64,000 nt of DNA from a virus. Taxonomy: Duplodnaviria > Heunggongvirae > Uroviricota > Caudoviricetes. Below, piece by piece: positions 2,198 through 61,915 of this stretch (within the stretch, counting starts at the first letter, position 1; the number at the start of each line of letters is the position of its first letter). The DNA lies in the IMG/VR virus record IMGVR_UViG_3300046055_000032, positions 22,145 to 86,144 of that record. The stretch is one strand, 5' to 3'. The notes under the pieces are model-generated. The model saw only the letters and a list, made by a program, of their open reading frames with translations. It did not search any database and was not told the DNA's origin. The translations under genes and the position numbers were made by a program.

Positions 2198-2263
2198 TTT
2201 AGAAAGTTTAATGAGGGGTGAGGTCATACCATTACTTTAGATAGCGCAGCTACCTATCGAGAG
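2198..2263 (+). promoter_or_regulatory. Conserved promoter/5'UTR cassette (copy D): TTTAGAAAGTTTAATGAG ... GAGAGGTGCCAGAC-GTG
   Basis: Homologous to three minus-strand cassettes at 32.8, 34.0 and 35.1 kb; TATA-like TTTAAT about 60 nt upstream of the start; GAGGTGCC SD-like box immediately 5' of the GTG start of 2264..2689. Confidence 0.5.
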
Positions 2264-4176: not shown

Positions 4177-4746
4177 TTATCGGTTCTCGATCCAGGACGT
4201 CAGGCGTGCTTGCACGTTCTCGTTCACGATGTCGTCAGCGTCGCGGAGACGTACCTGGTCGATCGCGGGCCGCATGAACGGTTGCGGTTCCACGCCGGGG
4301 TGCATGACTTTTTGCGCGAACACTGTTTTCGTTCCGCCTGTGTTGGGGTCGTGAACGTTGAAGCGGAGCGCGTCCGCGTTCGTGGGCGTGATCTCGTACT
4401 TGGTCCAGGTCCGTTTCCCGGGCGGCACGGTCGGCCAGTCGGGCGCCACCATGGGGTGGCGATCGGCGAAGGGTTCCCCTTTCGTGGCGCTGCCGAACTC
4501 TTGCGAGGCCGCGTAGTCGGCGTCTGCGCCGAAAATGCTTCGCAGTCCCGTCGTGGTTCGCGTGACGGGGTTGGCGTAAATGCTGCGCTGCAAGTTCCCG
4601 GCGCCGGTCCCGTCACCGACGGGCGCGTTGCGGATCGCTAACTCTTCGATCCGGTGACTAATGTCTTGGATGGCGTCGCGGATGCCGCGCCGGATGGCGT
4701 CTTTGATCTCGTCGCTGTGATCCTCGACGTTGAGGCGGTTCGGCAT
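4177..4746 (-). CDS. HK97 gp10-like head-tail connector / tail-completion protein
   Basis: AIRNAPVGDGTGAGNLQRSIY resembles the ApvdTGnLrrSi signature of the HK97_gp10 family. Confidence 0.5.
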   Translation of the reverse strand: MPNRLNVEDHSDEIKDAIRRGIRDAIQDISHRIEELAIRNAPVGDGTGAGNLQRSIYANPVTRTTTGLRSIFGADADYAASQEFGSATKGEPFADRHPMVAPDWPTVPPGKRTWTKYEITPTNADALRFNVHDPNTGGTKTVFAQKVMHPGVEPQPFMRPAIDQVRLRDADDIVNENVQARLTSWIENR

Positions 4747-9497: not shown

Positions 9498-10059
9498 CTC
9501 CGAGGTTCCCGACCGAAAACGTTAACTGGTACACGTACTGGTCCACTTCGCCCGCGACTTCCGTGGATCGCAACTGGTTCACCATGCCCTCCCATTCGCG
9601 CGGGTTCTCGCTGCTGCTCCACTCAGGGTACCCGAGCTTGATGGGGCCGCTCGCGTAATCTTGATGCGCTTGATCCGCGACGAAGTCGTACAGCATGTCC
9701 CGCACGTCCCGGCCGAGCTGTTGCGAGGAAACCGTGCTGGTATCGCTGTCCCCGTCCCGTTGCGCGGGAATGTGCTCCCCGTTGCCGTCACCGTACGGGG
9801 CGTTCGAGAGGTCGGGATAATCCGCCGCCTCGGCCGTAAGGATGAAACCGCTGATTTGGATGCGCGGCTGCTGGCTGCCGAGGTTAATGATGAAGTTCGT
9901 GGCGGACTCGCCTGTCAACTCGGTTGAAGTGTTCCCAGGGATTTGCGGGTCGATGAGTCGTACTTCGAGCGTTGGTTTTAACCGTTCGGCGGACAGGAAC
10001 AAGTACTCGTTGTTGCCGGTGCCGTCGTGTTGGCGCCGCAAATAGAACGTTAGGGACAT
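9490..10059 (-). CDS. tail structural protein (distal tail/baseplate-like)
   Basis: 189 aa ORF between the tape-measure genes and the fibers. Confidence 0.5.
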   Translation of the reverse strand: MSLTFYLRRQHDGTGNNEYLFLSAERLKPTLEVRLIDPQIPGNTSTELTGESATNFIINLGSQQPRIQISGFILTAEAADYPDLSNAPYGDGNGEHIPAQRDGDSDTSTVSSQQLGRDVRDMLYDFVADQAHQDYASGPIKLGYPEWSSSENPREWEGMVNQLRSTEVAGEVDQYVYQLTFSVGNLGGG

Positions 10060-22106: not shown

Positions 22107-23105
22107 TTACTCCTCGCTCCATTCGAGCGTTACGTCAACGTCAGCCGTGTTCCCGACGGACGGTTCCTTGTTCTCGACGACGACATCGAACTGTTCGTCC
22201 TGCGTACCGTTCACGGCCTGCTGGAACAGTGACGCGTTCGCGACCTTGGGTTCCCAGTCAACGCTCGTATTCGAGCGCCCATGCAGTTGCGCGATCGTCG
22301 TTGGCGTCCCGCCGCTATCCACTTTCTGGACTTCGGCACGGAACGGGACTTCGGCACTGATGGTAGCCTTGCGGACCGTTGCCGTAACGCTCGCGCTCGG
22401 CTGGAACGTGAGCGTGCTGGTCGTGCCTGGAGACACCGCGGCAGCGGTTTGCTGTCCAGCGTCGTCCGTGCCGAGCACGCCCTCCTCCACGATCGGGACC
22501 GGGTTGCTGGAGCTGACGGCCGATCCGCCAACGTACAGGTCAGCGTCCGCGAGCAAGTTCCCGAAACTGGACTGCGTAACGGTCGCGTCAAAGTTACCGT
22601 CGTCCGTGACCGTCACGGTTGCAGCACTAACGTCCAACGCGGCGCCGCTTTGGCCGTTAACGTCCACGGCCAGGTCGTTGGTTTGCGATCCGGCGCCGCC
22701 CGTCGTGATGTCATCGATACTGTTAACGTCGAACGCGCCGTCGTCCGTGACTGTCACGGTCGCGGCACTGACGTCCAACGCGGACGCGCTCTGCGCCGCG
22801 ATGTCGACGAGGAGGTTGTTCGTTTGCGCGCCGCCCGTATTCACGTCCTGTAGCTCGTTCACGCTGAACGAACCGTTGTCCGTGACCGTTACCGTGGCGC
22901 CGCTAACGTCCAACGCGGACCCGCTTTGCGCGTTAACGTCCACGGCAAGGTTGTCCGTTTGCGAACCCACGCCGCCGGTGGTGACGTCACTGATGTCGTT
23001 CTCGAACGTGCCGTCGTCGGTGACCGTGACGCCGCCACTGGACGAGATGTCCAAACGGTCGCCGTCGCTGTCGAGTAGTCGAACGTCTTGTGGTGCTTGC
23101 GTCAT
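22107..23105 (-). CDS. repeat protein (4 units of about 40 aa), head decoration or fiber candidate
   Basis: Repeated TVTDDG.F..N...DV.TGG.GSQTN.LAVDVN.QSG.ALDVS.A. Confidence 0.55.
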   Translation of the reverse strand: MTQAPQDVRLLDSDGDRLDISSSGGVTVTDDGTFENDISDVTTGGVGSQTDNLAVDVNAQSGSALDVSGATVTVTDNGSFSVNELQDVNTGGAQTNNLLVDIAAQSASALDVSAATVTVTDDGAFDVNSIDDITTGGAGSQTNDLAVDVNGQSGAALDVSAATVTVTDDGNFDATVTQSSFGNLLADADLYVGGSAVSSSNPVPIVEEGVLGTDDAGQQTAAAVSPGTTSTLTFQPSASVTATVRKATISAEVPFRAEVQKVDSGGTPTTIAQLHGRSNTSVDWEPKVANASLFQQAVNGTQDEQFDVVVENKEPSVGNTADVDVTLEWSEE

Positions 23106-27637: not shown

Positions 27638-30600
27638 TCATGGAATCATACCTCTCGGCATGGCGTTCCCGGTCAGTTGTTCGTAAACGATCGGGAACGT
27701 GTCCTTGAACTCCAAGTAATCCTGCTCCGGCAACATGGACGCGTCAATGTTCCCGTCCAGGCTATGCTTCATCGCGTCGAACACCCGGTCAGGGTTATCG
27801 AACTCTTGATACATCTTGAAGCAGGCCGAGCATTGCTCGTTCCACTCCTCCTCGAACACTTCGCCGCCCAGCGCCGCGAACGCGAGCATGTGCGCGGCCA
27901 AGCTCGGGTCGTCCGTTTTCGTTAACCGGTGATCCACGCGCCGAGCCTGTGATCGCGGGATCTCGTTCAACGCCCTCACGAACGCGTCACTGTGCACGTG
28001 ACTGACGCCGTGCGCGTCCGCGCTCTTCTGTTGATGTTGACAGATCGCCCACGCACTCTCCTCGTCATGACCCTCGTCGCGCAAACTCTCGACGCACTCG
28101 TGCGCTTCTTTCGGGTTCGCGACGTGCTCGTCAACCGGGACGTCCCCCCCGTCGCCGTCCCGATCGCGCGGAGAGTCAGCGGCTCGCTGCTCGCGCCGCT
28201 GCTTGTCTTGCGCCATCTGTTGATCGAGGCCGTTAAAGATCCCGTCCTTGTCGGCGGCGGAGCCCTCGTGCTCGTTAACGTCGTCCGTTTCGTCGAGCCG
28301 GCGATCCTCGTAATCGTCCTCGTCCTCTTGCTCGAAACGGGTATCGTCGCGATCCTTGCCACGGATCATGCCGAGCGTGCCCTTGTACATGCTCGCGACC
28401 CGCTCGTGACTGGGCTTCTTCGTGAATTGGCGCAGCATGGCGTGACGTTTCGCGCGCCACTCGCTCGCGGCGTGAAGCTCGTCGAGCGTCTTGCTCATCG
28501 CCGCAACGTCCCCGTCGTCTCGGTGCTCGCAGTCCTCGGGGCAACCGTCTTCGTGCCGCGGGCACGCCCCGTACTCCTCGCTGTCCTCGTCCTCGTCGTC
28601 TTTGGCGAGGACGTCATCCAGCTGGTTCTCGTACTCCTTCATCGCGAACCCTCGCGGGCGTGTCCCGGCCGTGTCGTCGTCATCGTTCGCGGAGTCCTCC
28701 GTACGGTCACTGCCCGCCGGGTAAAGATAATCCTCGACGTCACCGAGCTGCGGCTTCTGCGACGACGCGTCAGCGCGCGCCACGTGCGCCGACGACGCCG
28801 CGGTCGGGCGCGCCGGATAATCCAACGGGAACCCCCGGAACGAGCCGCTGTCGTCGCTGCCACGATTCTGCCCGTACGTGGGCCGCTGACGCATCACTTC
28901 GCTGCCGAGCGACTTCATCTTGTGCTCACCGGTATCGCGGAAGTACCTGTCACCGCTCGGGTGAGCCAACTCGCGCGCGAGCGCGTTACGGTATCCCGGA
29001 AGGGTGTTCATGTCTTTTCTGTCAAGGACTCGCGCATAGTCCGAGGTGCCGCCATAGCCGTGTGACTCGACGGTCTCGATCACGTCCCGCAACGCTTCCG
29101 GCTTGATCTCGAAGATCTCTTCGATCTTCTCGTAATCCGGCTCACGACCAAGCATCTCCCGGACCTCCGGGAATCGGGCTCCGCCACCCTCGCCGCCGGG
29201 ATCGCCCCCATCATGGGGATCGCCCTCGCCGTGAGGCTCGTCACCCCCGCTCTCGGCGCTCTCGTCGTAATAGTAGCCGCCGCGCGGGCCTTGCTGTACG
29301 TCCGCTCCCTCGGGTGCGTCCGAGGGGTCATCGACGTACGTGCGATCCTTAACGAGCGTCTGCAATTCCTTCAGCGTCTTGTCGCGGTGCGCGGCGTGCT
29401 CGTCGTAACTGTCAGCGACGTGCTCGTCGAGGTCACTGATAACGTCAACGGCGCTTTCCAGCCATGCGATGTCGTCGGCGCTGACGTTGCGCTCGAACGC
29501 TCGCATGTACTCTTGAAAGTCATCGAGCGCGTCATGGACGTCCCTGCGTTCCTCGCGGCGCATCGCGTCAACGTGATCTTTGACGAGCGCGTCGTCTCGT
29601 TTCAGTCGCGCGATCGCGAGACCGGCCCGGTCAACGTTACCTTTCTGGAGATCGATGCTGGCCTCGTACAGGTAATCGGCGAGGGAGCCGCACGCGATAG
29701 CGTCCTTGAACGCGATACCGTCCAGGATCGCCGCCTTGCTCGTTTCGTCCTCGATGACGTCGTCGTGGGACCGATGCTCGTCCTCGTCATCGCGTCCCGT
29801 CTCGTCGAGGCGCTCCAGGCGGCGCTTCATCTCCTTGCCCTCCTCTTCTTCTTTCTCGTCGTCGCTGTCCGCTTCCTCGTCAGCGTCCGCTCCGTCCTCG
29901 TCGTTGAGGAGGTCGTCGAGCGCCTTGTCAACGGTCGCGAGCGCGTCCTCGTACTCTTCGACGTCCTCGTCACCGTCCTGCTTGTCCGGTTCCTCGTCGT
30001 CGTCGTTCCAGAAGAAACGATACGACTCTTCGCCGTCGCTGACTCGCATCCCGTTCTCGGTTTTCGCGATGACGTCGAACCCCGCGCCTTGATTCATGCC
30101 GCGATCGCAGATCGTGACGGCGCTGAGGCTAATCTTCTCGATCTCGTTAACGAGCTTGCACGTGAACCCGCTACAGTCCGTCGTTTGTTGGGACTGCACG
30201 GCTTGCCCGCTGATACTGAACGCGCGCAAATCACCTTTCAGGATCTTCTCCGCGATGTCGCGCCCGATCTCGTCGTCCGTGTAAATTTTCCCAACGACGA
30301 ACAGGGCTTCCGTCCCCGGTTCGACGTCCGCGTCCTTGAGCAGATCGAACCGTTGCAGATCACTGGGCGTGACGGCGCGGACCTCGGTCTTGTAAACCGT
30401 GCCGTCCTTCGCCTCCCACGATTCGAGGATCTCGCCCGGAATGATGTCCGTGTGCTGCAACGAGAACCGGGCGCGCTTCAAGAGTTGCGGGAGCGCCGCC
30501 CGGAGCGCGTCGCCTTTGATGAGGTCGTTTTCGTCGTCAACGACGGCCACCGACGCGGGACCGTAAATCGTGACGCCGTCGCGCGCCTTGAACACGCGCA

Positions 30601-31018
30601 TCTCGTTCCGCGGACTCGGACGCCGCGCCGCTTTTCGCGCTCGATTGATGGGGTTGCTGTCCTCGGGCTCCGCCGCGTCCTCGGGCTCGTTCGAGTCCTG
30701 GCAAGAGCAATCCGTTCCGCGGCCGCAGCCACAATCCTTCGCCGTCGCGTCCTCGTCGTCCTCTTCATCGTCTGCGGGAAAGTCACGCTCCTCGTCGTCG
30801 CCGCTGACGACTTGCCGGAAGGAGTCCGGGTCGCCTTTCAGGATGTCGTTCGCGACCGCGTCCGCGAGCTGTTTCGAGAGACCGTTGCTCCGCAGGTCCT
30901 CTCGGATGGTGGCGTACGCGGTATCGTCCCCGAACTCCTCGCGGACGCGCTGCGCCTTACGGAAATAGTGCAGGAACCCCTCGCTCGGGGTCCCGTCAGC
31001 GATTGGAGTGGCCACCAA
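27638..31018 (-). CDS. 1126-aa polyprotein with an HK97-family prohead protease domain (aa ~140-320) and a long acidic scaffold-like extension
   Basis: RVFKARDGVTIYGPASVAVVDDENDLIKGDA...LQHTD...GLRAFSISGQ resembles S78 prohead protease motifs; the remainder is D/E-rich; contains the shared YVDDPSDAPEGADVQQGPRGGYYYDES motif (nt ~29261-29341). Confidence 0.65.
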   Translation of the reverse strand: MVATPIADGTPSEGFLHYFRKAQRVREEFGDDTAYATIREDLRSNGLSKQLADAVANDILKGDPDSFRQVVSGDDEERDFPADDEEDDEDATAKDCGCGRGTDCSCQDSNEPEDAAEPEDSNPINRARKAARRPSPRNEMRVFKARDGVTIYGPASVAVVDDENDLIKGDALRAALPQLLKRARFSLQHTDIIPGEILESWEAKDGTVYKTEVRAVTPSDLQRFDLLKDADVEPGTEALFVVGKIYTDDEIGRDIAEKILKGDLRAFSISGQAVQSQQTTDCSGFTCKLVNEIEKISLSAVTICDRGMNQGAGFDVIAKTENGMRVSDGEESYRFFWNDDDEEPDKQDGDEDVEEYEDALATVDKALDDLLNDEDGADADEEADSDDEKEEEEGKEMKRRLERLDETGRDDEDEHRSHDDVIEDETSKAAILDGIAFKDAIACGSLADYLYEASIDLQKGNVDRAGLAIARLKRDDALVKDHVDAMRREERRDVHDALDDFQEYMRAFERNVSADDIAWLESAVDVISDLDEHVADSYDEHAAHRDKTLKELQTLVKDRTYVDDPSDAPEGADVQQGPRGGYYYDESAESGGDEPHGEGDPHDGGDPGGEGGGARFPEVREMLGREPDYEKIEEIFEIKPEALRDVIETVESHGYGGTSDYARVLDRKDMNTLPGYRNALARELAHPSGDRYFRDTGEHKMKSLGSEVMRQRPTYGQNRGSDDSGSFRGFPLDYPARPTAASSAHVARADASSQKPQLGDVEDYLYPAGSDRTEDSANDDDDTAGTRPRGFAMKEYENQLDDVLAKDDEDEDSEEYGACPRHEDGCPEDCEHRDDGDVAAMSKTLDELHAASEWRAKRHAMLRQFTKKPSHERVASMYKGTLGMIRGKDRDDTRFEQEDEDDYEDRRLDETDDVNEHEGSAADKDGIFNGLDQQMAQDKQRREQRAADSPRDRDGDGGDVPVDEHVANPKEAHECVESLRDEGHDEESAWAICQHQQKSADAHGVSHVHSDAFVRALNEIPRSQARRVDHRLTKTDDPSLAAHMLAFAALGGEVFEEEWNEQCSACFKMYQEFDNPDRVFDAMKHSLDGNIDASMLPEQDYLEFKDTFPIVYEQLTGNAMPRGMIP

Positions 31019-31109
31019 CAGCAGTGCGTGCCGGCGACATATATAGGCATTTCCCTACTTATGCACGCCCGCGGAACGTTTTCGCTGGACCCGAAAACGT
31101 CGAAAACGT

Positions 31110-31643
31110 TCACTCGACGTCGCGCTTCCGATCCCGAACCAACGCGGCAGCTTTCTCTAACAGCGCTCGCTCCCCGTCGGGGGCCACCGACTCCGCCATG
31201 TCCTCCACAACCCCGGCCGCTTCGTCGATGCCGCGATTCTCCGCCTGCTTCAGCCCACGCACGACGTGCGGCATCAATTCTCGGATGCGCGTCCCGGACA
31301 ACCCCGACAGAGAGTCATCACGGTTCGGTCCGGTCAAAAGCCCGTACGCGCGCTCGCGATGATCCGTGTCGAGCGCCCCATTGTGATCCTCCAACAGTTG
31401 CCGGCGCTCGCGCTCCCAACGACCACGCTCCTCCTCCCACGCACCCCGAACAAGATCACTTAACCGTTGACAGTGAGCGTCCTCCAACGCAGCGCGCGCC
31501 GCGTCAACGATCCGCACCGCCTCAAAGTCACAGTACTTCGCAACGATGATCCCCAGCGCTCGCGCATCGTCCACGTCCCCGGGCCGCGCGAAACGGTCCC
31601 GTTTGACGTCCCGAACGATCGGTTCCAGCCGATCCCGCATCAC
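31110..31643 (-). CDS. hypothetical (177 aa), first gene of the accessory island
   Basis: ORF; coiled-coil-like. Confidence 0.45.
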   Translation of the reverse strand: MMRDRLEPIVRDVKRDRFARPGDVDDARALGIIVAKYCDFEAVRIVDAARAALEDAHCQRLSDLVRGAWEEERGRWERERRQLLEDHNGALDTDHRERAYGLLTGPNRDDSLSGLSGTRIRELMPHVVRGLKQAENRGIDEAAGVVEDMAESVAPDGERALLEKAAALVRDRKRDVE

Positions 31644-31954
31644 GCGGACGCCTCCTCAACGTCTTCGTCAAGGTTGTGCGTCTCTTTCTCGGTCACGCGG
31701 TACGTGATGAGGACCTGGTGCCCGTTCCCACACGCGAGCGTTTCGACGACTTTGGCGGGGAAGCCGTTCGTTCGTAACCAGTTGACGGCGACCCGGTCGG
31801 CGCCAGCCTCGCACTCAGGACAGCGAGGCATCACACTCCCTCCTGCGCGTCGGGACGCCCATCCCGCGGCGATGCCAGCAGCTCGACTAACGCCTCCCGC
31901 CGAGCGTCTCCGAGGATGCTCGTGCGCCCATACCGCGAACGCGTCACGGCTCAT
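31640..31954 (-). CDS. Zn-ribbon protein (104 aa)
   Basis: Internal ATG (MSRDAF) chosen for its ATGA overlap with 31954..32547; CPECEAG...CGNGH. Confidence 0.45.
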   Translation of the reverse strand: MSRDAFAVWAHEHPRRRSAGGVSRAAGIAAGWASRRAGGSVMPRCPECEAGADRVAVNWLRTNGFPAKVVETLACGNGHQVLITYRVTEKETHNLDEDVEEASA

Positions 31955-32547
31955 CACCGCACCTCCAACTGGATGGGTTCCCAACCAACGTCACAGCACA
32001 GGTACGCGACGCCATCAAGGAGGATGATGTCACCGACGCGGAAGGATCGGATCGCGTCCTCGTCGTCGACGACCCGCGGAACGGGGCAGTGCGGACCACC
32101 CGCCTCGACGCTTTGCCAAAGCGCTTCGAGGAACGCGTCCGTCGTGATGCCCAGCTCGTTCCGCGCCAACGAGCGCGGGTCCTTGGTGGGCGCGTGAGCG
32201 GCCACTTCCTCGGGCGCGAGCTGGCCGCGCCACGTCTCCTCGTACTGGTCGCGAAGATCCGCGAGACTGGGCGTTTCCGGTTCGTCGTCGTCACCGTAGT
32301 TGCGATGCCCGATCGGATTCGGATACCTCATCCGTTGATTGTGATGCCAGATGCGGACCTCGGCCTGGTACTCGTTCAGCCCGTCGAGCACGGCCTGGAA
32401 CTGCTCGTAACGGTCCGGGTGCGATGCCTCGTCCGCGGTCTCGTCGCAGTGATAACCGCAAAAGCAAACGTCCGCAGCAGCAGCCGTGACGCGGCACGCG
32501 CGCCGCGCGTGCTCGTCATGCTTCGCGCCAGCGCGAGTCAGGCTCAC
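31954..32547 (-). CDS. hypothetical Cys-rich protein (197 aa)
   Basis: ORF; CFCGYHCDE and LCCDVGW motifs. Confidence 0.5.
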   Translation of the reverse strand: MSLTRAGAKHDEHARRACRVTAAAADVCFCGYHCDETADEASHPDRYEQFQAVLDGLNEYQAEVRIWHHNQRMRYPNPIGHRNYGDDDEPETPSLADLRDQYEETWRGQLAPEEVAAHAPTKDPRSLARNELGITTDAFLEALWQSVEAGGPHCPVPRVVDDEDAIRSFRVGDIILLDGVAYLCCDVGWEPIQLEVR

Positions 32548-32744
32548 AGGACCTCCTCCTGGTAGATCGCGTCCGTGTACGCGGCGCGGACCCTGCGATT
32601 GATCTCCGCACGCGATCCTTGCACGTCCGGGTGCTGTGTGGCGTCCCGGATCGCCGCAGCGAGGAAGCGGTCACTCCACTCGCCGTCAGTTCGCTGGACG
32701 GCTGTCGTCACGATCTCGCGGATAGCGGTTTGCGTCCTCATCAT
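32544..32744 (-). CDS. small protein (66 aa) driven by cassette copy A
   Basis: ATG 8 nt after GAGGTGCC. Confidence 0.5.
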   Translation of the reverse strand: MMRTQTAIREIVTTAVQRTDGEWSDRFLAAAIRDATQHPDVQGSRAEINRRVRAAYTDAIYQEEVL

Positions 32745-32811
32745 GGCACCTCAACGCGCCCGCGTGGGCGCATATAGTAGTAGGACCTACTTGCTTATTA
32801 AATTTTCTAAA
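32745..32811 (-). promoter_or_regulatory. Promoter/5'UTR cassette copy A (TTTAGAAAATTTAATAAG-CAAGTAGGTCCTACTAC-hairpin GCGCCCACGCGGGCGC-GAGGTGCC-ATG)
   Basis: Near-identical to copy B; TATA-like TTTAAT about 55 nt upstream of the start; SD-like GAGGTG. Confidence 0.6.
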
Positions 32812-33025
32812 GGCCCGACGGTTCGCCCACGGGCGGCAGCACCCGGATCGTCTCGCTCGTCTCGTGGCGCAATTGATCCATCACGAAACCCTCGTCCTTG
32901 ACGGCGGGCACTCCCTCAGCGAGCCCCGGACCCGCCTCCGGCCCGTACGGATGCAGCTGAAGCGGCACCCACTTGTCCCGTTTCTCCTCCCACACGCCCT
33001 CGTTCCAGTTACGGCGAATCATCAT
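32807..33025 (-). CDS. hypothetical (72 aa)
   Basis: ORF; weak. Confidence 0.35.
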   Translation of the reverse strand: MMIRRNWNEGVWEEKRDKWVPLQLHPYGPEAGPGLAEGVPAVKDEGFVMDQLRHETSETIRVLPPVGEPSGL

Positions 33026-33096
33026 AACGCCCCTGACCGGACTCGAACCGGCGGCACTCGATCAAACGGTGCCGGGCCCCGTGCGGCCTCGCGGGG

Positions 33097-33279
33097 CTAC
33101 GACCCGGTACGGACGACCTCGATCCTGCTGGCACGATCCGCATCCGACGCATCGCTCTCCCACAACGCGCCGCACGCGCACACGAACTTGTACGCGAACC
33201 CCCCGAACGCCTGAGGACGGTACGTGGGGCTGCCCACGGCCACCCCGTGGCAGCCGTTGCTCGGGCAAGACTGACTCAT
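33097..33279 (-). CDS. small Zn-ribbon protein (60 aa)
   Basis: Internal ATG (MSQSCPSNGCHG...CACG) of track ORF 33097..33750; 1-nt overlap with the upstream stop. Confidence 0.4.
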   Translation of the reverse strand: MSQSCPSNGCHGVAVGSPTYRPQAFGGFAYKFVCACGALWESDASDADRASRIEVVRTGS

Positions 33280-33992
33280 CACATACGCACGCCCTTGGGG
33301 ACGTCGCTTGCGCGCTTCGCCGCAGCCGCGACCTCCTCCTCGGCCTCGCCGGCGTCGTCCGACGCCCACACGGCCTTGTCCAGGCGGTCCAGCACGACGA
33401 GAGTGCCGGCGTCGAAAACGTTCTTCACGACGCCCTCGTACGTTTCCCCGTTCTTGTGCTCGACGGTGAACCGCTGACGGACGGTCGAGCCCTCGCCGCT
33501 GCCCGTCTTCGTGACGTCCCCGAACGAAAGGTCCTTGATCGGCGCCATCGTCTCGCGCTTCCGCTCCTCGCGCTCCTTCCAGCGGAGCGCCTCCTCGTGC
33601 TGCTTGTTGCGGCGCTCGCGCTCGGCCTGCTCGGCCAGCTCCTCCTCGCGCTCCCGGATGCGCTCGCGCGCGTCCTCGCTGACCGGGTACGCCGTCCAGC
33701 GGGTGCTCGTCGCCCAGAACGTGTCCCCGAGTTCGTCGTTCAGCTCGCACAGGACGCCGTCCGTGTACGAGCCGACCGCGTCAGGGTGCGAGAGCCGTTC
33801 GCGGGGTTCGTCGTCCACGATCGAAACGATGTACCCGGTCTTGCCCTCCGCGGGGCGAGGATGGACCTTCTCGACCCGCACGGTCGCCAACGCGGCGCGC
33901 TTGGGGCTATAGTTGTAAAGCAGCGCCGGGAACGTGTCCCCGACGTCCGTCGGCCAGTCCTCGGGATCGAGTCCTGTCGCGTTGATCGTCAT
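33279..33992 (-). CDS. hypothetical (238 aa) with a central coiled-coil (ERIREREEELAEQAERERRNKQ)
   Basis: Start reassigned to the internal ATG (MTINATG) downstream of cassette copy B; the track ORF extends upstream only by reading through the cassette. Confidence 0.55.
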   Translation of the reverse strand: MTINATGLDPEDWPTDVGDTFPALLYNYSPKRAALATVRVEKVHPRPAEGKTGYIVSIVDDEPRERLSHPDAVGSYTDGVLCELNDELGDTFWATSTRWTAYPVSEDARERIREREEELAEQAERERRNKQHEEALRWKEREERKRETMAPIKDLSFGDVTKTGSGEGSTVRQRFTVEHKNGETYEGVVKNVFDAGTLVVLDRLDKAVWASDDAGEAEEEVAAAAKRASDVPKGVRM

Positions 33993-34064
33993 CGTCTGGC
34001 ACCTCAAACGCCCATCGCGGGCGCGAATAGTAGTAGGACCTACTTGCTTATTAAATTTTCTAAA
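33993..34064 (-). promoter_or_regulatory. Promoter/5'UTR cassette copy B
   Basis: TTTAGAAAATTTAATAAGCAAGTAGGTCCTACTACTATTCGCGCCCGCGATGGGCGTTTGAGGTGCCAGACG-ATG. Confidence 0.6.
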
Positions 34065-34614
34065 CCTCCTGGGGCGAGTCGGGGGTGCTGACGTCAATCG
34101 CTAAACAATCCGGGAGCGGAAGCGCTTCGCTCCAAACCCCCAACCCCTCACAGGACAGCTCTCCCCTCTCTCGACCCTCCTCGGACTCGGCCGCCGCGAA
34201 CGCGCCCGGCGCCTCCCCGCACTCAAGCACCACATCCGCAACGACCGTGCTGTCAGCGCTCACCACGAGCGTATGCGAACCCTCGCCCAAGCACGGAAGG
34301 GCGCGGGCCTCCCCTATGTCCCAGCCCTCAGCCGCGAACTCGGCGCGATCCATGCCCGCCTCCACGCGCAGCGTCGCGTCCAGCGGCGCATTCTCAGCAC
34401 CAGTCAACGTGACGCGCAACGTGTCGATGGCAAGGTTCTCGTCCATGTCCGCACCGTCGGTGCGAGCGCTCGCGTACGGTGCCGGCTCGTACTCCAGCCA
34501 TTCCGGACCGACGAGAACGGTCGCCGCCAACGCGACGGTCACGGCCATCATCAGCACCACGCCAACGACCGGCGAGACGGCGCGATCCTCAACGGTTCGC
34601 GTATTCGCGATCAT
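34060..34614 (-). CDS. membrane-anchored / secreted protein (184 aa)
   Basis: Internal ATG (MIANTR) with ATGA overlap; N-terminal TM or signal helix VVGVVLMMAVTVALAATVLV; 4 Cys. Confidence 0.5.
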   Translation of the reverse strand: MIANTRTVEDRAVSPVVGVVLMMAVTVALAATVLVGPEWLEYEPAPYASARTDGADMDENLAIDTLRVTLTGAENAPLDATLRVEAGMDRAEFAAEGWDIGEARALPCLGEGSHTLVVSADSTVVADVVLECGEAPGAFAAAESEEGRERGELSCEGLGVWSEALPLPDCLAIDVSTPDSPQEV

Positions 34615-34955
34615 GGTTCGTCCTCCGGGTCGTGCGCGAGGGCCCGATAAGCGTCCCCAGTGTTGCGGGGGATCGAGCCCGTCATGTACTCCAGAAACAC
34701 CGTCAGGCATTCATCGACGTTCGTGTCGTCAGCGTCCCGCGCAGAAACCGACGTGTAGTCGAGGTAAATGCTGTCGGGATCGGTGGGTCGCCACACCTCC
34801 GCGATGATGCCCCGCTCGGCCGTGCGGCGGAACCGGACGCGCCCGCCGGTACCGAACCAGGCCTCGACCGCGGGTTCGCCCTGCTTGCTCGTCCGCGTGA
34901 CGCGGGTCACGGTGAGGCTGCTGTCGGGGGAGTCGTCGCCGGGTTCAGGCATCAT
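34611..34955 (-). CDS. hypothetical (115 aa)
   Basis: Internal start MMPEPGDD overlapping the stop of the 47-aa ORF. Confidence 0.5.
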   Translation of the reverse strand: MMPEPGDDSPDSSLTVTRVTRTSKQGEPAVEAWFGTGGRVRFRRTAERGIIAEVWRPTDPDSIYLDYTSVSARDADDTNVDECLTVFLEYMTGSIPRNTGDAYRALAHDPEDEP

Positions 34956-35088
34956 TCGCCCTCTCCCCCGCCTCGTCGGGGTGCGGGTACGCCGCGCGCT
35001 TCGCTTGCTTGCCAAGGTAACGCTGAACCTCGGCGCTGTGCTCGACCTTGTCGCCGGGCGGGACCAGGTCCGTGTTGGTTCCGTTCAT
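34945..35088 (-). CDS. small protein (47 aa) driven by cassette copy C
   Basis: My own translation (not in the ORF track): MNGTNTDLVPPGDKVEHSAEVQRYLGKQAKRAAYPHPDEAGERANDA; GAGGTGCC 4 nt upstream of the ATG. Confidence 0.4.
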   Translation of the reverse strand: MNGTNTDLVPPGDKVEHSAEVQRYLGKQAKRAAYPHPDEAGERANDA

Positions 35089-35155
35089 CGTGGCACCTCA
35101 AGCCCTCTCGGGCGCAATAAGTAGTAGGACCTACACCCTCATTAAAGTTTCTAAA
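35089..35155 (-). promoter_or_regulatory. Promoter/5'UTR cassette copy C
   Basis: TTTAGAAACTTTAATGAGGGTGTAGGTCCTACTACTTATTGCGCCCGAGAGGGCTTGAGGTGCCACG-ATG. Confidence 0.55.
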
Positions 35156-35422
35156 TTGGGAGCAGCGGGCAACCGACAAGCAGGGACACCCCTGACAACC
35201 ACGACGCCGAACACGCTCCCGTGTCGGCGTAACCGGCGAACCCGAAGCCAGCTCGCCCGAGCCGAACGAGCAGCTCTCGATCTACCGCCGAGCGGGCTCC
35301 CTGAGCCCACGGCAGGGCCGGAGCGACTCGTCAAGCGACGAGAAGGAAAAGCAAAGGCGGGCGTGCGCCCCGTTGAAGGTTAAGGTGAATCGTAAGCGCC
35401 CGCACGCTCGGGCAGCCCTCGA

Positions 35423-35563
35423 TCACCGCTCCGGCAACGGGACCGGCACGATCACGCCGTCACCGCCGCAATGAACGTGTTTGAACATCACGGCGTGCAG
35501 CGCGCTGGCACAGTACGCGTGATTGCTGCCGGTGATGTCGATCTTGAACGCGACGTCACACAT
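35423..35563 (-). CDS. small Cys/His protein (46 aa)
   Basis: Internal ATG of track ORF 35423..35650; weak. Confidence 0.3.
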   Translation of the reverse strand: MCDVAFKIDITGSNHAYCASALHAVMFKHVHCGGDGVIVPVPLPER

Positions 35564-35786
35564 CGACGTGCTCCGGCCAGTCGTGAACCTGCTTGAGCGA
35601 CAAGAACCGCTCGACGCTGGTCGCGGTCTCGCGGTAAAGCTTGTAATCACTCAAGTCGTACTCCTCCCGGATCTGGCTGGCGGACTCTTGCGCCCGCTGC
35701 GCACCCGCAGGGCTGTCGTCGAAGATCTCCATCTCGACCAGCGTGCGCGGGTTCGCTTCATCACGGAGAGCGACGATCAATGGCAT
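35556..35786 (-). CDS. hypothetical (76 aa)
   Basis: ORF preceded by the degenerate cassette GATTTAATATCCTTAAAG...GAGGTCGCCATCGA-ATG. Confidence 0.45.
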   Translation of the reverse strand: MPLIVALRDEANPRTLVEMEIFDDSPAGAQRAQESASQIREEYDLSDYKLYRETATSVERFLSLKQVHDWPEHVDV

Positions 35787-35832
35787 TCGATGGCGACCTC
35801 ATGTGGGGGCTTTAAGGATATTAAATCTTCGC
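35787..35832 (-). promoter_or_regulatory. Degenerate promoter cassette (TTTAATAT ... GAGGTCGCC)
   Basis: Similar architecture to copies A-D, with lower identity. Confidence 0.4.
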
Positions 35833-37200
35833 TTACTCGACATAGCCGTATTGCCCGAAGCAGTGACCGTTCTCGCGCACCCGCGGCGGGCACTCCGGTT
35901 TCTCGACGTCAACGCCCCGCTCTCTCTGGAACGCCCACTCACCGAGCTTCTCGGCGTAGTCCAAGTACTGGGGATCGTCGTCGTTGTCGCCCTTGTAGAC
36001 GCCCGCGAAGTCCTGCGCCCACTCCTTGACTTCCTCGACCTGCTCGCTCATCACTTGGATCTCGGCCGGGACGCCATCGACCGTCACGACCACGTGAACG
36101 GCGCGATAGTAACCACCGGCTGGGTCCTCCCGAAACTTGTCGTCCACTTCGCGAACCTCAGCGCCTTCGGCGACGCTCCACTCTTGCAACCGGCGAACGG
36201 TCTGCTCCAGGTCGTCGGACGTGTCCGTGAGGACGCGCATCCCGATGATGTCGTCCATGTGCTCTAACGGATCGTCGTCGTACTCCTCCTTGCGATCCTC
36301 ACGTTTTGTCTTGAGCGACCCGGCATCCTTGAGGCGACCACGGGTCTTGGAACCCGAGAACGCTTCCCTCAAGGATGAGTGAAGGTCGTAGAACGGTTCC
36401 GTGAGTTGACCAACCCACTCGTCGTACTCGTTCTCGCTCGCGCCCATCTCTGGCGCGTCCTGGATGTGCTCCGCCCATGTTCGATCGAACGCGGGCGCGT
36501 GCTCGACCACAGCCTCCCGATCCTCAGCCGCCGCGAGCGCTTTCCGCCGATCGACAAACACCCCACCTTGCGGACCCTCGTGAACGGGAACGCCCTCGGG
36601 CACATCGTCTGGACCCTCCACGTACTGGCGATGATCGGGCGGTGGGAGATCGCCCGGGGTCGTTTGCGTCACGACGATCTCGCCAGTGTTGACGCCAACC
36701 TTCAGGAGCGATGTCTCGATCTCTTCGTTACGCATCGCCTCGAACGAGTTCCCGGTCGCCTGCCGAGCATCATCCAGCGATCCGTAGATGCTTACGTGCG
36801 GGTGATCGAGTTCCTGGTCGAACGCGTCGCGTTTCCAGTCAAGGTAAACGTCGCTCTCCGGGAAGTCAACCGCAACGCCCACGACCTTACCGTCCTCGTC
36901 GATGACCCGATAACAGGAACCATCCCCGAACCAGTTCCCGTCCTCTTGCTTCACGATCACTTCACCCGTCTCGGGATCAATGTCGTGATCCACGACCCTG
37001 TCAAGCGACACAAGCCCGTCCTCCTCGTCTTGTTCTTCGCGCAGCTGCTCCTCGAACTCGGACCCCGGTGCCTCCTCACGCATCCACTGACTTTTCACAG
37101 CGACGCGCTGCTCGACATCGCGTTGCTCGTCCCCGTCGCGTCTCCCCTCATGCAGCCAGTGAGCGTTCCTCTCGCTCTCACGCCAATCGATCGTGATCAT
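35833..37200 (-). CDS. RelA/SpoT-like nucleotidyltransferase (small-alarmone-synthetase/toxSAS-like) domain protein
   Basis: C-terminal SGSKTRGRLKDAGSLKTK...DDIIGMRVLT...GGYYRAVHVVVTVDGVPAEIQVMSEQ..W matches the GRVKs..Si..K / DliGiRii / YrSlHlvv...EiQiRT motifs of the RelA_SpoT synthetase fold; the start is set to the internal ATG that gives an ATGA overlap; carries the shared QYVEGPDDVPEGVPVHEGPQGGVFVD motif. Confidence 0.6.
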   Translation of the reverse strand: MITIDWRESERNAHWLHEGRRDGDEQRDVEQRVAVKSQWMREEAPGSEFEEQLREEQDEEDGLVSLDRVVDHDIDPETGEVIVKQEDGNWFGDGSCYRVIDEDGKVVGVAVDFPESDVYLDWKRDAFDQELDHPHVSIYGSLDDARQATGNSFEAMRNEEIETSLLKVGVNTGEIVVTQTTPGDLPPPDHRQYVEGPDDVPEGVPVHEGPQGGVFVDRRKALAAAEDREAVVEHAPAFDRTWAEHIQDAPEMGASENEYDEWVGQLTEPFYDLHSSLREAFSGSKTRGRLKDAGSLKTKREDRKEEYDDDPLEHMDDIIGMRVLTDTSDDLEQTVRRLQEWSVAEGAEVREVDDKFREDPAGGYYRAVHVVVTVDGVPAEIQVMSEQVEEVKEWAQDFAGVYKGDNDDDPQYLDYAEKLGEWAFQRERGVDVEKPECPPRVRENGHCFGQYGYVE

Positions 37201-39248
37201 ACCGGGACTGCCTCCTGCCATTGCTCGATCGCTTCCTCCCACGCCCGCTGGAACGCTGTCTCGGACGGTTCGTGAACATCGTCCAAACGGTACACGGCCT
37301 CTTCCGGGCTCGCCACGACGTACTCGGCTTCGTCGTCGAAAAGACCCGGGCCCGTCATCCAAGACGTGGCGATGTTCTCCACGGGAACGCGAGCACTCAG
37401 CACCACGTCACCGAAATCTTGCGCGACTTCCGGGTCGGCCGTCCACGATTCGAGCGCGCGATGCTGGACGGCCAGCTGCTCCTCGTTCCCTTCCTCTTTC
37501 GCGCGCCGTAGCTCGTCCGCGATCTCGCCACTGACGCCGCGGTACATTGTGACGGTGTCCGTGTCCGGGTCGTACGTCGGGTCCACGTCACGCACGAACG
37601 CTTGCGTGAACGCGGCCATGCGCGCCATGTGCTCGGCGTCCCGTTGCCCAACGCCAAACGACTCCGAGCGCTTCTGTTCCTCGGCCAGGATGCCGGGATG
37701 CACGAACGAGTTCCCGGTCTTCTGCACCGCCCACGCCCACATCGGTAACGTGGACGGTTCCTCAGGGCTCTGGCCCCAACTGTCCGTCGCGTTAACGGCT
37801 TCCGGGAGCTTCTCCACTAACTGTTCCCCGATCTTACTGTAAAGCGGGCCGGCGTGCAGTTCCTCGAACGTTGATGTCTCACCGATCGTCACTTCGTCAG
37901 CGTTCGTCTTGACCAGGTTCTTGAGATGCGACGACGCGGCCTCGCGGTAATCCGTTTCGTCGAGGCGTTCCCGGATCGCGTCCCAGTCGATGCCGTCCAC
38001 CAGCTTTTCGCCGTACTGTTCCGCGTCCTGGATCGAGACCGTCTCGCTCACGCGGCTCGATTCGTGCGCCGCGTCGCTGGTCTCGACTTGCTCCGACGCG
38101 ACGTCGTGACCCGTCGCGGAAACGTGCCCGCCGAGACCGGACGGCGTCTCGAAACAGTGACCCGGCACGTCACAGTACTCTTCACCCTGCTTGTGGATGC
38201 GCGTCATCTGTAACTCGGCACCGACCGGCGCGTCGAGCAGCTCCGAAACGTACCGTCTCGTTTTCCCGATGCCGTCCGAGTCAACGTCCCGGAGACGATC
38301 CACCCACTCGTTGCGGACAGCGACCGCCTCTTCGTTGTACAGTTGCCAGCGCTCCTCCTGGTCCATGATGTTAACGTTCTCGCGCGTGTAGGTGTCACCG
38401 TCCGGGTCCCCAGCGACGAGCACCTCTGCCTCCTCACCCCCGAACAGTCCCGAGGACAGCCAGGAACCAATAACGCGCTCCACGGGAACGCGCGTCGAGA
38501 TGACGACGCCGTGGTTGTCCTCGGCAAAGTTGCCCGCCACGACAGGGTTGGCCGTCCACGACTCCACTGCCCGATGCGTGACGTCCGCTTCGTCGGTCGA
38601 TGGGCCCACGCCCGAGCGGATGAGTTGGTCAAGCTCTTCCTGAAAGTGCTCCGCGCCCGTGCCGCGGAACACTTCGATGGTGTCGGTGCCCGGGTCGTAG
38701 GTCGGATTCCACTCCCGATGCAACGCTTGGTCCAACGCCGCCGCCTGCTCGAACTGTTCAGCCTGCTCGGGCGACAGGTCGTGCTCCGCCACTTCTTCCT
38801 CCACGTCCGGGTGAAGCTTGTCAACGCCGTACTTCTCGCGCGCCCACGCCCACACCGGGACCGTCGCCTCGCTGTTCGGCCAGCCGCCGAAACGGTTCAG
38901 CGCGTCCGGTGTGACGTCCTCGATCTCCCCGGGCGCTTCGACCAGGCGGAACGGTTCCTCGAACTGTTCGTACTCCTCCATCGTCATGCGGGAGGGATCA
39001 AGGCCGTTCTCCCAGTCGGACAGGGGCGCTTGCTCTAACCGTTCCTGCACAGCGTCACGGTACCCTTCTGCAAGCGTCGCCGGTGATGCGCCTGCGACAC
39101 CTGACGACTCGGCTTCGTCCTCATCAACGCTCCCCTCCGACTCGTAGTACAAGCCACCGCGCGGTCCTTCATGGATCTCGACGCCGTTCGGCGCTTCCGA
39201 AGGATCGTCAATGTAGATGTTCGCTTTCGCAGCGCGCTTCCCCGTCAT
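37197..39248 (-). CDS. protein with two tandem ADP-ribosyltransferase-like (R-S-E) domains
   Basis: Two homologous roughly 170-aa segments, each with FRG/YRG (Arg), ESWTA (S-x-T) and GGEEAEVLV / DDEAEYVV (E-x-E) in the order and spacing of ART toxins; N-terminal shared motif IYIDDPSEAPNGVEIHEGPRGGLYYES. Confidence 0.55.
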   Translation of the reverse strand: MTGKRAAKANIYIDDPSEAPNGVEIHEGPRGGLYYESEGSVDEDEAESSGVAGASPATLAEGYRDAVQERLEQAPLSDWENGLDPSRMTMEEYEQFEEPFRLVEAPGEIEDVTPDALNRFGGWPNSEATVPVWAWAREKYGVDKLHPDVEEEVAEHDLSPEQAEQFEQAAALDQALHREWNPTYDPGTDTIEVFRGTGAEHFQEELDQLIRSGVGPSTDEADVTHRAVESWTANPVVAGNFAEDNHGVVISTRVPVERVIGSWLSSGLFGGEEAEVLVAGDPDGDTYTRENVNIMDQEERWQLYNEEAVAVRNEWVDRLRDVDSDGIGKTRRYVSELLDAPVGAELQMTRIHKQGEEYCDVPGHCFETPSGLGGHVSATGHDVASEQVETSDAAHESSRVSETVSIQDAEQYGEKLVDGIDWDAIRERLDETDYREAASSHLKNLVKTNADEVTIGETSTFEELHAGPLYSKIGEQLVEKLPEAVNATDSWGQSPEEPSTLPMWAWAVQKTGNSFVHPGILAEEQKRSESFGVGQRDAEHMARMAAFTQAFVRDVDPTYDPDTDTVTMYRGVSGEIADELRRAKEEGNEEQLAVQHRALESWTADPEVAQDFGDVVLSARVPVENIATSWMTGPGLFDDEAEYVVASPEEAVYRLDDVHEPSETAFQRAWEEAIEQWQEAVPV

Positions 39249-61805: not shown

Positions 61806-61915
61806 GCAGTCGATTGGTTGGGCTTTAATCTTTCTAAATCCGCAAGGCGTTGGTGTGAGAAGAAAACGTCGATGAATCGCTCTCCCATCGAATCATCCAG
61901 AGCGGGGGCGAAGCG

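Follow-up and report, generated by a model that had tools for sequence, protein, structure and literature searches.

The 64,000-nt window analysed here (positions 22,145-86,144 of IMG/VR record IMGVR_UViG_3300046055_000032, a tailed virus of the Caudoviricetes whose hosts are presumed to be haloarchaea, the salt-loving archaea) carries four full copies of a cassette of about 70 nt, c1, c2 and c3 on the minus strand and c4 on the plus strand, which share TTTAGAAA-N-TTTAAT, a GGTC-centred block, a hairpin, and GAGGTGCCA placed 5-7 nt 5' of a start codon. The cassettes are best read as archaeal BRE/TATA promoters specific to the virus and joined to a leader with a 5' hairpin and a Shine-Dalgarno (SD) sequence, and each is quite probably a self-contained expression unit comprising BRE/TATA, conserved block, 5' hairpin leader and SD. 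Cassettes of this kind are already known from HF2, HGTV-1 and T4-type phages; it is in sequence and layout that the present family is new.

Almost nothing has been mapped of how archaeal tailed viruses regulate their genes, and HF2 is the only case found among them of repeated intergenic sequences that are proven promoters. The unit described here is compact and dissectable, and is shared by two or more uncultured viruses even though the genes under its predicted control have been fully exchanged. Cassettes of this type fix start codons for annotation, mark the predicted boundaries of transcription units, and are candidates for strong expression signals with a leader in haloarchaeal genetics.

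A repeated cassette and its partial relatives

All four copies lie where a preliminary description of this DNA had placed them (three on the minus strand, one on the plus strand), and its hairpins and GTAGGTCCTAC match those found here; for c4 the start at 2198 holds, while the end moves from 2263 to the GTG at 2273-2275. The long forms below were each identified by profile HMM, motif and hairpin.

32811-32745, minus strand: cassette c1, long form; TTTAGAAAATTTAAT 32811-32797, AGTAGGTCCTACT 32791-32779, hairpin GCGCCC-ACGC-GGGCGC 32771-32756, GAGGTGCCA 32752-32744
34064-33993, minus strand: cassette c2, long form; TTTAGAAAATTTAAT 34064-34050, AGTAGGTCCTACT 34044-34032, hairpin GCGCCC-GCGAT-GGGCG(T) 34024-34008, GAGGTGCCA 34005-33997, ATG 33992
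35155-35089, minus strand: cassette c3, long form; TTTAGAAACTTTAAT 35155-35141, TGTAGGTCCTACT 35135-35123, hairpin GCGCCC-GAGA-GGGC(TT) 35115-35100, GAGGTGCCA 35099-35091, ATG 35088
2198-2275, plus strand: cassette c4, long form, the most diverged copy; TTTAGAAAGTTTAAT 2198-2212, block GTGAGGTCATACC 2218-2230, A/T-rich hairpin TAGATAGC-GCA-GCTACCTA 2238-2256, GAGGTGCCA 2261-2269, GTG 2273
534-592, plus strand: short-form relative without the leader hairpin; palindromic TATA island ATATTTAAAT 534-554, GAGCC-TT-GGCTC inverted repeat, GAGGTGCCA 573-581
61824-61839, minus strand: TATA-type core only, ATTTAGAAAGATTAAA, two mismatches to the cassette head
35787-35826, minus strand: separate promoter-like site, GATTTAATAT, then GAGGTCGCCA 17 nt past the TATA, then ATG 35786

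Repetition of these elements in the window lies far beyond chance, with TTTAGAAANTTTAAT matched exactly at four places and with two mismatches at two more (0.27 expected), and GAGGTGCCA matched exactly at five (0.36 expected). The window holds only 11 AT-rich islands, and six of these bear a TTTAGA-N-TTAA(A/T) head. The preliminary description had proposed a motif search over the virus and its relatives; a profile HMM built from c1-c4 and run on the window recovers the four copies at E = 2e-21 to 2.5e-26, its sole further match being weak and partial (61847-61825, E = 0.22), and one relative, L022, yields three more cassettes. Because c1, c2 and c3 are recent copies of each other (the first 38 nt of c1 and c2 are identical), they do not count as independent evidence within the window, and the independent evidence for the family comes only from c4 and the three copies of L022.

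Two further sites had been put forward as degenerate versions of the cassette, at 61806-61850 and 35787-35832. Both retain the TATA-type part (61824-61839 and 35811-35826) and lack the conserved block and the hairpin; the former is also without GAGGTGCCA, and the latter has only TTTAAT and a GAGGT-like element in common with the cassettes. In the short form at 534-592, the fifth GAGGTGCCA of the window, which the preliminary description had missed, lies only about 32 nt past the TATA, and ATG 590 starts an 11-codon uORF that overlaps ATG 621; read on the minus strand, the island of this site gives TTTAGAGATTTAAAT. A protein search with the 403-aa protein of 621-1832 returned only itself.

Predicted promoter head, leader hairpin and ribosome-binding site

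Throughout the seven cassettes of the window and L022, TTTAGAAA-N-TTTAAT, GGTC and GAGGTGCCA are each unchanged (7/7), and every cassette follows the local coding strand and is aimed at a start codon 58-66 nt past TTTAAT (4/4 in the window and 3/3 in L022), a distance that replaces the 55-60 nt first given. AGAAA-N-TTTAAT, likewise unchanged in 7/7, fits the haloarchaeal promoter consensus, in which the BRE is 'CGAAA' and the TATA 'TTWT' (PMC4983044). On this reading AGAAA-N-TTTAAT(A/G)(A/G)G would serve the host polymerase as an archaeal BRE/TATA promoter, with transcription predicted to start about 24-31 nt past the first T of TTTAAT, in the A/T-rich ACTATAT or AGTAAGT.

The block RGGTC-N-TAC(T) occupies about -16 to -4, the usual site of an archaeal repressor. 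It may be contacted by a regulator, either virus-specific or from the host, or else act as a promoter-specificity element. A perfect 6-1-6 palindrome is present in three of the seven cassettes, namely c1 and c2 (AGTAGG-T-CCTACT) and r_3 of L022 (CTTACT-T-AGTAAG), the fraction of shuffles that reach one being 0.01-0.035; in c4, r_1 and r_2 the palindrome does not rise above shuffles. The half-sites converge in the window virus and diverge in L022. Since it is perfect in only three of seven copies, and lies 7 nt further downstream in L022 than in the window virus, the operator for a dimeric regulator that had been proposed is at best weakly suggested and stays hypothetical.

The foot of the hairpin stands 25-26 nt past TTTAAT in all seven cassettes. 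The hairpins are 4-9 bp long, are followed by 0-3 T, take up the indels of the cassette in their loops, and differ in sequence while pairing is kept, with stems that include GCGCCC, GCCGCC, CGTGGGAG and GATAG. Their summed folding energy is -78.8 kcal/mol against -43.1 kcal/mol in shuffles (z = -6.3; 0/1000 as low), the individual hairpins giving only modest z-scores. In a covariance-model alignment, which is fitted to the structure and hence leans towards the hairpin, 87.5% of cells are paired and five of six pairs are changed on both sides, a result equalled by 0/500 shuffles. MAFFT/RNAalifold misaligned the bare hairpin segments and predicted no structure from them, and Rfam gave no match at gathering score in the window and no cassette match at E <= 1 in 32400-35400. 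By hand count there are five G.U pairs on the sense strand against one A-C mismatch, and because G.U pairs are tolerated on that strand the hairpin is most likely RNA. The transcript would open with it almost at once, most plausibly for 5'-end protection or mRNA stability. The 270-nt gap upstream of c3 is unremarkable in its folding (z = -1.2).

Downstream of the hairpin, (T)TGAGGTGCCA supplies the Shine-Dalgarno sequence for the first gene of the unit, 5-7 nt before its start codon. The GAGGTG in it, separated from the cassette start codons by 5-7 nt, also precedes the starts of many internal genes (for example 55926, 55101, 49188, 48883, 39264, 31965 and 17445), and is the general ribosome-binding site of this virus. 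The complementarity to 16S rRNA claimed for the element 5' of the start holds for GAGGTG, which is complementary to the haloarchaeal 16S 3' end, ...CACCUCC-3' (the window carries no rRNA gene); it fails for the CCA of GAGGTGCCA, which is conserved, yet is not accounted for by 16S pairing. A point against the reading is that 72% of transcripts in Haloferax volcanii are leaderless (PMC4983044), which makes leadered mRNAs with an SD the less common design among the presumed hosts.

The start codon of c1 is ATG 32744 or, more likely, ATG 32741. Three downstream ORFs had been thought to be called over-long through the cassettes, and one such call stands, 33279..34097 behind c2; the call behind c4 is longer by only 3 codons, and the ORFs behind c1 and c3 are blocked by the TGA within TTGAGG. 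Automatic ORF calls in L022 likewise start inside cassettes. On the upstream side, a 72-aa ORF ends at TAG 32809-32807 in c1 and a pilin-like ORF at TAG 34062-34060 in c2, in each case within TTTAG.

The ORFan island and its equivalent in L022

Three of the cassettes fall between genes of the virion block, and the fourth precedes a series of plus-strand genes:

31110-35832, minus strand: ORFan island with c1-c3 and about 13 small ORFs, between the RelA_SpoT-like and head protease genes
37200-35833, minus strand: RelA_SpoT-like gene
31018-27638, minus strand: head protease gene
2273-2689, 2682-2873 and 2878-4101, plus strand: genes downstream of c4, predicted to be driven by it

In L022, whose capsid protein is 82% identical to that of the window virus, the three cassettes occupy the same RelA-to-protease interval as c1-c3, and the cassette blocks are invariant in 7/7 although the flanking proteins of the two viruses are only 55-82% identical. 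The ORFs of the island at 31110-35832 have no detectable homologue in the equivalent island of L022, and it is in these two islands, free of shared genes, that three of the four window cassettes and all three of L022 are found. The cassettes would therein head small ORFan groups of a hypervariable island within the virion-gene block, c4 would head a plus-strand operon, and the head and tail genes further downstream are probably served by c1 as well.

Searches for further members covered relatives and larger collections. The stretches compared in L012 (terminase 64% identical), L013 (48%) and L023 are without a cassette. The pattern TTTAATNAGNNNGTAGGTCCTAC has 0 matches in IMG/VR, and TTTAGAAANTTTAATN{35,60}GAGGTGCC has 0 in IMG/VR and 0 in GTDB genomes; its five matches in JGI metagenomes, on otherwise dissimilar contigs of 25-47% GC, were set aside as chance. 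The looser TTTAGAAANTTTAATN{8,12}GGTC has 43 matches in IMG/VR, every one in a contig of low GC content and none of them resembling a cassette. Phage records contained no match to 30000-38000 by megablast, and one cassette, compared by blastn with 50,697 such records, had chance matches only. A tRNA-like fragment in the island, at about 33030-33095, was considered as an attP and rejected, ARAGORN and Rfam being negative and its 22-mer absent from GTDB genomes.

Counterparts in other viruses and alternative readings

Reporter assays together with primer extension showed that the AT-rich intergenic repeats (IRs) of HF2 are promoters whose TATA begins at -26 (PMC8707807). Like them, the cassettes are repeated AT-rich intergenic units with BRE/TATA in a tailed haloarchaeal virus (29-58 bp in HF2), with further conserved motifs around the transcription start (in the cassettes, the predicted start) and a possible upstream stop codon within the repeat head (IR4 and PolB in HF2); in both, repeats are kept in related viruses (cassette sequence and genomic position are conserved in L022), transcripts are leadered (about 45 nt for HF2 IR4, predicted for the cassettes), and the conserved parts are suggested to be bound by a factor that the virus encodes. 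Unlike the cassettes, which are known from sequence alone, the HF2 IRs were experimentally tested. There is no sequence similarity between the two, IR4 sharing no block with the cassettes and these sharing none of the HF2 alpha/beta/gamma motifs. Furthermore, the HF2 repeat stops near the start site, without a covarying leader hairpin, SD or start codon, and in HF2 the repeats stand before long transcripts, both early/middle and late, whereas the cassettes cluster in an ORFan island.

The promoter-early stem-loop (PeSL) cassettes of T4-type phages (Arbiol et al. 2010, PMC2839356; Comeau et al. 2014, PMC4122927) resemble the present family in their order of upstream stop in an AT-rich head, promoter, stem-loop with G.T pairs, SD and start codon, in their concentration in hyperplastic, ORFan-rich regions, and in the location of some copies within the virion module beside genes without assigned function. 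They differ in that the PeSL promoter is a strong sigma-70 -35/-10 promoter where the cassettes are, by inspection, archaeal BRE/TATA-like; in that the PeSL stem-loop lies within or around the promoter and acts as a terminator, whereas the cassette hairpin has a fixed place past the TATA, within the predicted leader; and in number, with about 50 copies per genome against four cassettes and their short forms in the 64-kb window. PeSL mini-circles, products of recombination, have been demonstrated, whereas none were seen for the cassettes.

For HGTV-1, a conserved motif with a TATA-like box and an inverted repeat is described before many small ORFs of that haloarchaeal tailed virus, the same arrangement as here, and it has already been likened to PeSLs (Sencilo et al. 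2013, summarised in PMC3950731). On inspection of its sequence, the HGTV-1 unit is about 110 nt long and comprises TTTTTATAG, the inverted repeat ACTCCTCGTG-GCA-CGAGGAGT, GGTATATAAA, and a second BRE/TATA, CGAAAGNCTTAATAC. It has no sequence similarity to the cassettes, and its ATG lies about 25 nt past the last TATA, which would give a leaderless mRNA without SD, unlike the cassettes. The SAS/ESAS of Cluster K mycobacteriophages and the stoperators of Cluster A are phage-specific short repeats 5' of starts, including the ribosome-binding site, and share with the cassettes a presumed phage-encoded binding factor; they differ in belonging to bacterial phages, in their 13-17 bp against the 70 nt of the composite units here, and in having no TATA or hairpin module.

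The preferred reading as promoter and 5' untranslated region, also that of the preliminary description, is consistent with every test run (orientation, motif fit, SD and hairpin). Its chief rival, which we regard as unlikely, would make the cassettes promoter-terminators of the PeSL type, their hairpins attenuating or ending upstream read-through and so insulating ORFan modules, and the cassettes themselves serving mainly as patches of homology for recombination. The architecture matches that of T4-type PeSLs point by point (PMC2839356), and the cargo of the hypervariable ORFan island is wholly different in the window and in L022; the hairpin, however, comes after the TATA, no earlier than the predicted start, and has only 0-3 T behind its stem. 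Longer T runs are normally needed for archaeal termination. The 38 identical nt of c1 and c2, and Logan contigs of this virus that end exactly at c1 and c2, also speak for recombination patches, but such breaks are expected in a de Bruijn assembler from any repeat of at least 31 nt. The cassettes account for fixed break points in short-read assemblies of this virus, and neither rearranged junctions nor mini-circles were seen. This rival is in any case compatible with the promoter reading, the disagreement being confined to the role of the hairpin.

That the hairpin and its flanks are instead a cleavage or stabilisation signal in polycistronic transcripts, with no promoter role for the AT-rich head, is improbable. 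For phiH1 and HF2, long primary transcripts with subsequent processing have been described (PMC8707807), and c1 and c2 directly adjoin their upstream ORFs with no terminator between, yet the AT-rich head agrees with the BRE/TATA consensus and is the most conserved part (7/7), which a processing site would not need, and the short-form sites keep the TATA-plus-SD logic without a hairpin. Scarcely credible is a MITE-like remnant or a conserved coding segment devoid of regulatory role, for which the existence of a repeated sequence of about 70 nt and one open cassette frame (FRKFNKQVGPTT) can be cited. Mobile-element remnants had been named as an outcome that would overturn the promoter reading; terminal inverted repeats and target-site duplications are absent, the ends TTTAGAAA... 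and ...GAGGTGCCA not being inverted, the flanks differ between copies, and orientation is always that of the genes. As coding sequence the cassettes fail in that the frame differs between copies: the distance from TTTAG to the start is 67/70, 72, 67 and 75 nt and the reading frame is therefore not kept, the loop of the hairpin takes the indels, and upstream stop codons lie inside the cassette.

Beyond the promoter reading, it is conceivable, though we offer it tentatively, that the cassettes are an archaeal-virus counterpart of PeSLs, portable promoter-hairpin-SD units that would move with or capture ORFan cargo and so build the hypervariable island. They might be switched jointly by one viral protein reading AGTARG half-sites next to GGTC, and the hairpin and GAGGTGCCA leader might give viral mRNA an advantage in stability or translation in a mostly leaderless host. 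Candidates for the binding protein are the 403-aa HTH/C2H2 protein (621-1832), the 89-aa winged-helix-like protein (49652-49383) and the 337-aa C2H2 protein (59872-58859). The PeSL idea, that regulatory cassettes drive modular shuffling, would with this family reach a second lineage of archaeal viruses, HGTV-1 having been the first. The present cassette family is absent from L071 and L072, but L071 carries an analogous repeat of its own.

Copies and conservation of the cassette

The putative promoter/5'UTR cassettes c1 (32811-32745), c2 (34064-33993) and c3 (35155-35089) on the minus strand, and c4 (from 2198) on the plus strand, were found by direct reading of the sequence at the places named in the preliminary description, except that c4 runs to a GTG at 2273, beyond the limit it had been given. 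Each consists of the following elements.

Element 1 (5' end): TTTAGAAA-N-TTTAAT
Element 2: spacer of 25-26 nt, constant in length in all copies, containing RGGTC-N-TAC(T) followed by an A/T-rich stretch
Element 3: hairpin of 4-9 bp
Element 4: (T)TGAGGTGCCA
Element 5: start codon, 5-7 nt past GAGGTG

In c1 and c2 the upstream gene terminates at the TAG contained in TTTAG, and in c1 a second ATG, at 32741, is the better-spaced start. The window holds four exact matches to TTTAGAAANTTTAAT and two with 2 mismatches, against 0.27 expected, and five matches to GAGGTGCCA, against 0.36. A four-copy profile search of the window recovers c1-c4 at E = 2e-21 to 2.5e-26, the sole other match (61847-61825) being weak and partial, and a repeat finder groups c1-c3 as one 68-nt family and c4-c3 as an inverted pair. 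Only 11 AT-rich islands occur in the window, six of them with the head TTTAGA-N-TTAA(A/T). Two sites earlier called degenerate versions do have the TATA-type head common to the cassettes, which is all they share with them; a fifth GAGGTGCCA, at 573-581 behind a TATA island at 534-554, had gone unlisted.

L022, a contig of a related virus (SRR28149500) reached via a protease homologue, is identical to the window virus at 82% in the capsid and 55% in the protease, and carries three cassettes, r_1, r_2 and r_3, beginning at ~7316, ~8253 and ~9162. All seven copies, the two viruses taken together, keep TTTAGAAA-N-TTTAAT, GGTC and GAGGTGCCA unchanged, and the sequence between these blocks differs among the copies, a pattern pointing to selection on separate functional elements rather than to recent copying alone. 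Because c1, c2 and c3 are close mutual copies (the first 38 nt are identical in c1 and c2), only c4 and the three copies in L022 count as independent witnesses. The claim that ORFs are read through the cassettes is true, in the window, of the ORF behind c2 only; over-long calls do occur in L022, where automatic gene calls at 7337-7486 and 8291-8449 begin inside r_1 and r_2, upstream of the ATGs supported by a Shine-Dalgarno (SD) site.

Probable promoter, palindrome and predicted leader hairpin

AGAAA-N-TTTAAT agrees with the haloarchaeal consensus of BRE 'CGAAA' and TATA 'TTWT' (PMC4983044), and in halovirus HF2 intergenic repeats of similar build were proved to be promoters, with the TATA from -26, in reporter, primer-extension and mutagenesis experiments (PMC8707807). 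By the HF2 rule, transcription of the cassettes would start within ACTATAT / AGTAAGT, a few nucleotides 5' of the hairpin. The conserved block RGGTC-N-TAC(T) would then fall at about -16 to -4, a region in which archaeal repressors often act by hindering the recruitment of polymerase. As far as sequence analysis reaches, through repeat statistics, seven-copy conservation, BRE/TATA fit and SD use, the reading as a promoter/5'UTR family holds, with promoter activity and start site as predictions.

A near-palindromic core, named earlier as a plausible operator for a dimeric regulator, is perfect in c1 and c2 (the 13-mer AGTAGG-T-CCTACT, reached by a fraction 0.02-0.035 of shuffles). The perfect CTTACT-T-AGTAAG of r_3 (0.01 of shuffles) has the same half-site in the opposite arrangement and 7 nt further downstream, and the palindrome in c4, r_1 and r_2 is not distinguishable from shuffles. 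With one copy reversed and shifted and three unremarkable, a shared half-site AGTARG is plausible and a fixed dimeric operator is still a hypothesis; within the conserved block, GGTC is the only element invariant in 7/7.

At a constant position, the hairpin varies in its stem, which is GCGCCC (c1-c3, r_2), GCCGCC (r_1), CGTGGGAG (r_3) and GATAG or TAGATAGC (c4), and also in its loop. Minimum free energies add up to -78.8 kcal/mol over the seven segments, where dinucleotide shuffles give -43.1 +/- 5.7 (z = -6.3; 0/1000 as low). In a covariance-model alignment, which is structure-fitted and misregisters c3 and c4, so that its pairing counts are indicative rather than exact, 87.5% of cells pair and both sides change in five of six pairs (0/500 shuffles reaching this). 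Non-Watson-Crick positions are largely sense-strand G.U (5, with a single A-C), which makes an RNA hairpin in the sense transcript likelier than a cruciform in the DNA or an antisense RNA.

The protease gene has a TATA-like site of its own in both viruses. The window site (31020-31110, minus) is CCTATATATG; before it comes AAGTAGGG, with the AGTAGG half-site inside. The L022 site (9965-10030, plus) is TTTTTAAATAG and has an 8-bp hairpin, GCGAGTGG...CCACTCGC, after it.

Ribosome-binding sites and short forms

GAGGTG is the ordinary SD of the window virus, since many internal genes have it, on their coding strand, in front of the start codon. The extra CCA of the cassette 9-mer, presumably without complementarity to the 16S 3' end, is kept in every promoter-proximal copy, including both short-form sites, which have no leader hairpin.

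Window 534-581, plus strand: TATA island and GAGGTGCCA
L025 (contig of the window virus) 4438-4484, plus strand: 4.9 kb beyond the left end of the window, preceding an SNF2-type helicase gene

The TATA-to-SD distance is ~30-32 nt in short forms against 47-55 nt in the long form, so the long form amounts to a short form with a hairpin module added. The L025 site has a perfect 16-nt palindrome, AAGGATTTAAATCCTT, with the TATA box at its centre, and then TTGAGGTGCCA-GG-ATG. At 590-625 (plus), an 11-codon uORF, MFASIRESDVR, starts 10 nt past GAGGTG and 7 nt past the 9-mer GAGGTGCCA, and its overlap, via ATGA, with the ATG of a 403-aa HTH/zinc-finger protein (621-1832) suggests translational coupling. 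A second, different conserved translation-start motif is a 35-42 nt repeat that spans the starts of several genes and encodes MTSN(D/E).

51464-51423, 51633-51592, 55102-55061 and 63723-63689, minus strand: GGAGG..ATGACGAGTAACGA repeat

Genomic setting and known counterparts

The window has a G+C content of 60-67%, and between 64000 and 4177 nearly all genes lie on the minus strand, a plus-strand block ending at 4101.

48020-46473, minus strand: large terminase
42699-40648, minus strand: portal
39248-37197, minus strand: MuF-like head protein with C-terminal DRAT ADP-ribosyltransferase domain
37200-35833, minus strand: RelA_SpoT-like gene
31018-27638, minus strand: head maturation protease
26900-25512, minus strand: major capsid protein

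Tail and baseplate genes are recognisable too, after the capsid in minus-strand order. Since the nearest isolate, Haloarcula virus HCTV-5, has a capsid identity of only 25% and megablast of 30000-38000 against phage records gave no match, this is a haloarchaeal-type tailed virus without a close cultured relative; the Logan assembly of SRR18079251 contains the same virus. The MuF-DRAT protein and the RelA_SpoT-like (alarmone-synthetase-type) gene that follows it (39248-35833, minus) look like a virion-delivered toxin/effector module, and the pair is kept in L022, where an HD_4 gene adjoins it. Three ~123-nt repeats, 64-81% identical (22596-22994), within a 337-aa ORF (23120-22107), are probably internal repeats of a structural protein.

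In each virus the interval from the RelA_SpoT-like gene to the protease gene holds three cassettes, in an island of small ORFans (window 35832-31110, ~13 small ORFs; L022 3091-9945, ~20 ORFs). The flanking genes are conserved between the two viruses, and no protein common to both islands is detectable by tblastn at E = 1e-3. The island looks like an insertion hot spot, because in L013, from a more distant relative, a protein aligning with the protease N-terminus comes immediately after the MuF-like gene. Logan contigs of the window virus start or stop exactly within c1 and c2, breaks that we attribute to repeats of at least 31 nt in such assemblies.

The cassettes agree at every point of build and setting with the published account of T4-type PeSLs, which have an AT-rich head containing the stop codon of the preceding gene, a promoter, a stem-loop, an SD and a start codon, and lie in ORFan-rich hypervariable regions (PMC2839356); they differ in their archaeal promoter type and in placing the hairpin downstream of the promoter. 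PeSL-like motifs have already been reported in halovirus HGTV-1 (PMC3950731); read directly, these are unrelated in sequence to the cassettes, ~110 nt long and with several TATA-like boxes, and their ATG comes ~25 nt past the last of these, which would make the mRNAs leaderless. Virus-specific promoter/SD consensus units appear common in this group, since another more distant relative, L071 (JGI 3300005193), has its own.

1422-1490, 1835-1900 and 14044-14110 of L071, plus strand: ATAGATTTATA-N~25-TTGAGGAG-AGAAAGA-ATG

Searches of IMG/VR, JGI metagenomes, GTDB genomes, GenBank phage records and Rfam gave no member of the window/L022 family. The family is real, and a well-delimited new form of a known element type, not a new principle.

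Apart from one archaeal type IV pilin N-terminal signal, the island ORFs lack any family assignment. This signal (Pfam Pilin_N, E = 8e-8) lies in a 184-aa ORF (34614-34060, minus) between c3 and c2, at its start; such pilin-like cargo is unusual in a virus. The ~270 nt upstream of c3 (35156-35422, minus) hold no convincing ORF, fold no better than shuffles (z = -1.2) and give a weak, chance-level Rfam match to mir-375. A tRNA-like 3' fragment (33030-33095, minus; T-arm CCGGTTCGAGTCCGG, acceptor-like GCCCC...GGGGC), negative with ARAGORN and Rfam and with a 22-mer of it absent from GTDB genomes, directly follows a 58-aa CxxC protein (33273-33097), an arrangement reminiscent of the HF2 module of attP, CxxC protein and integrase.
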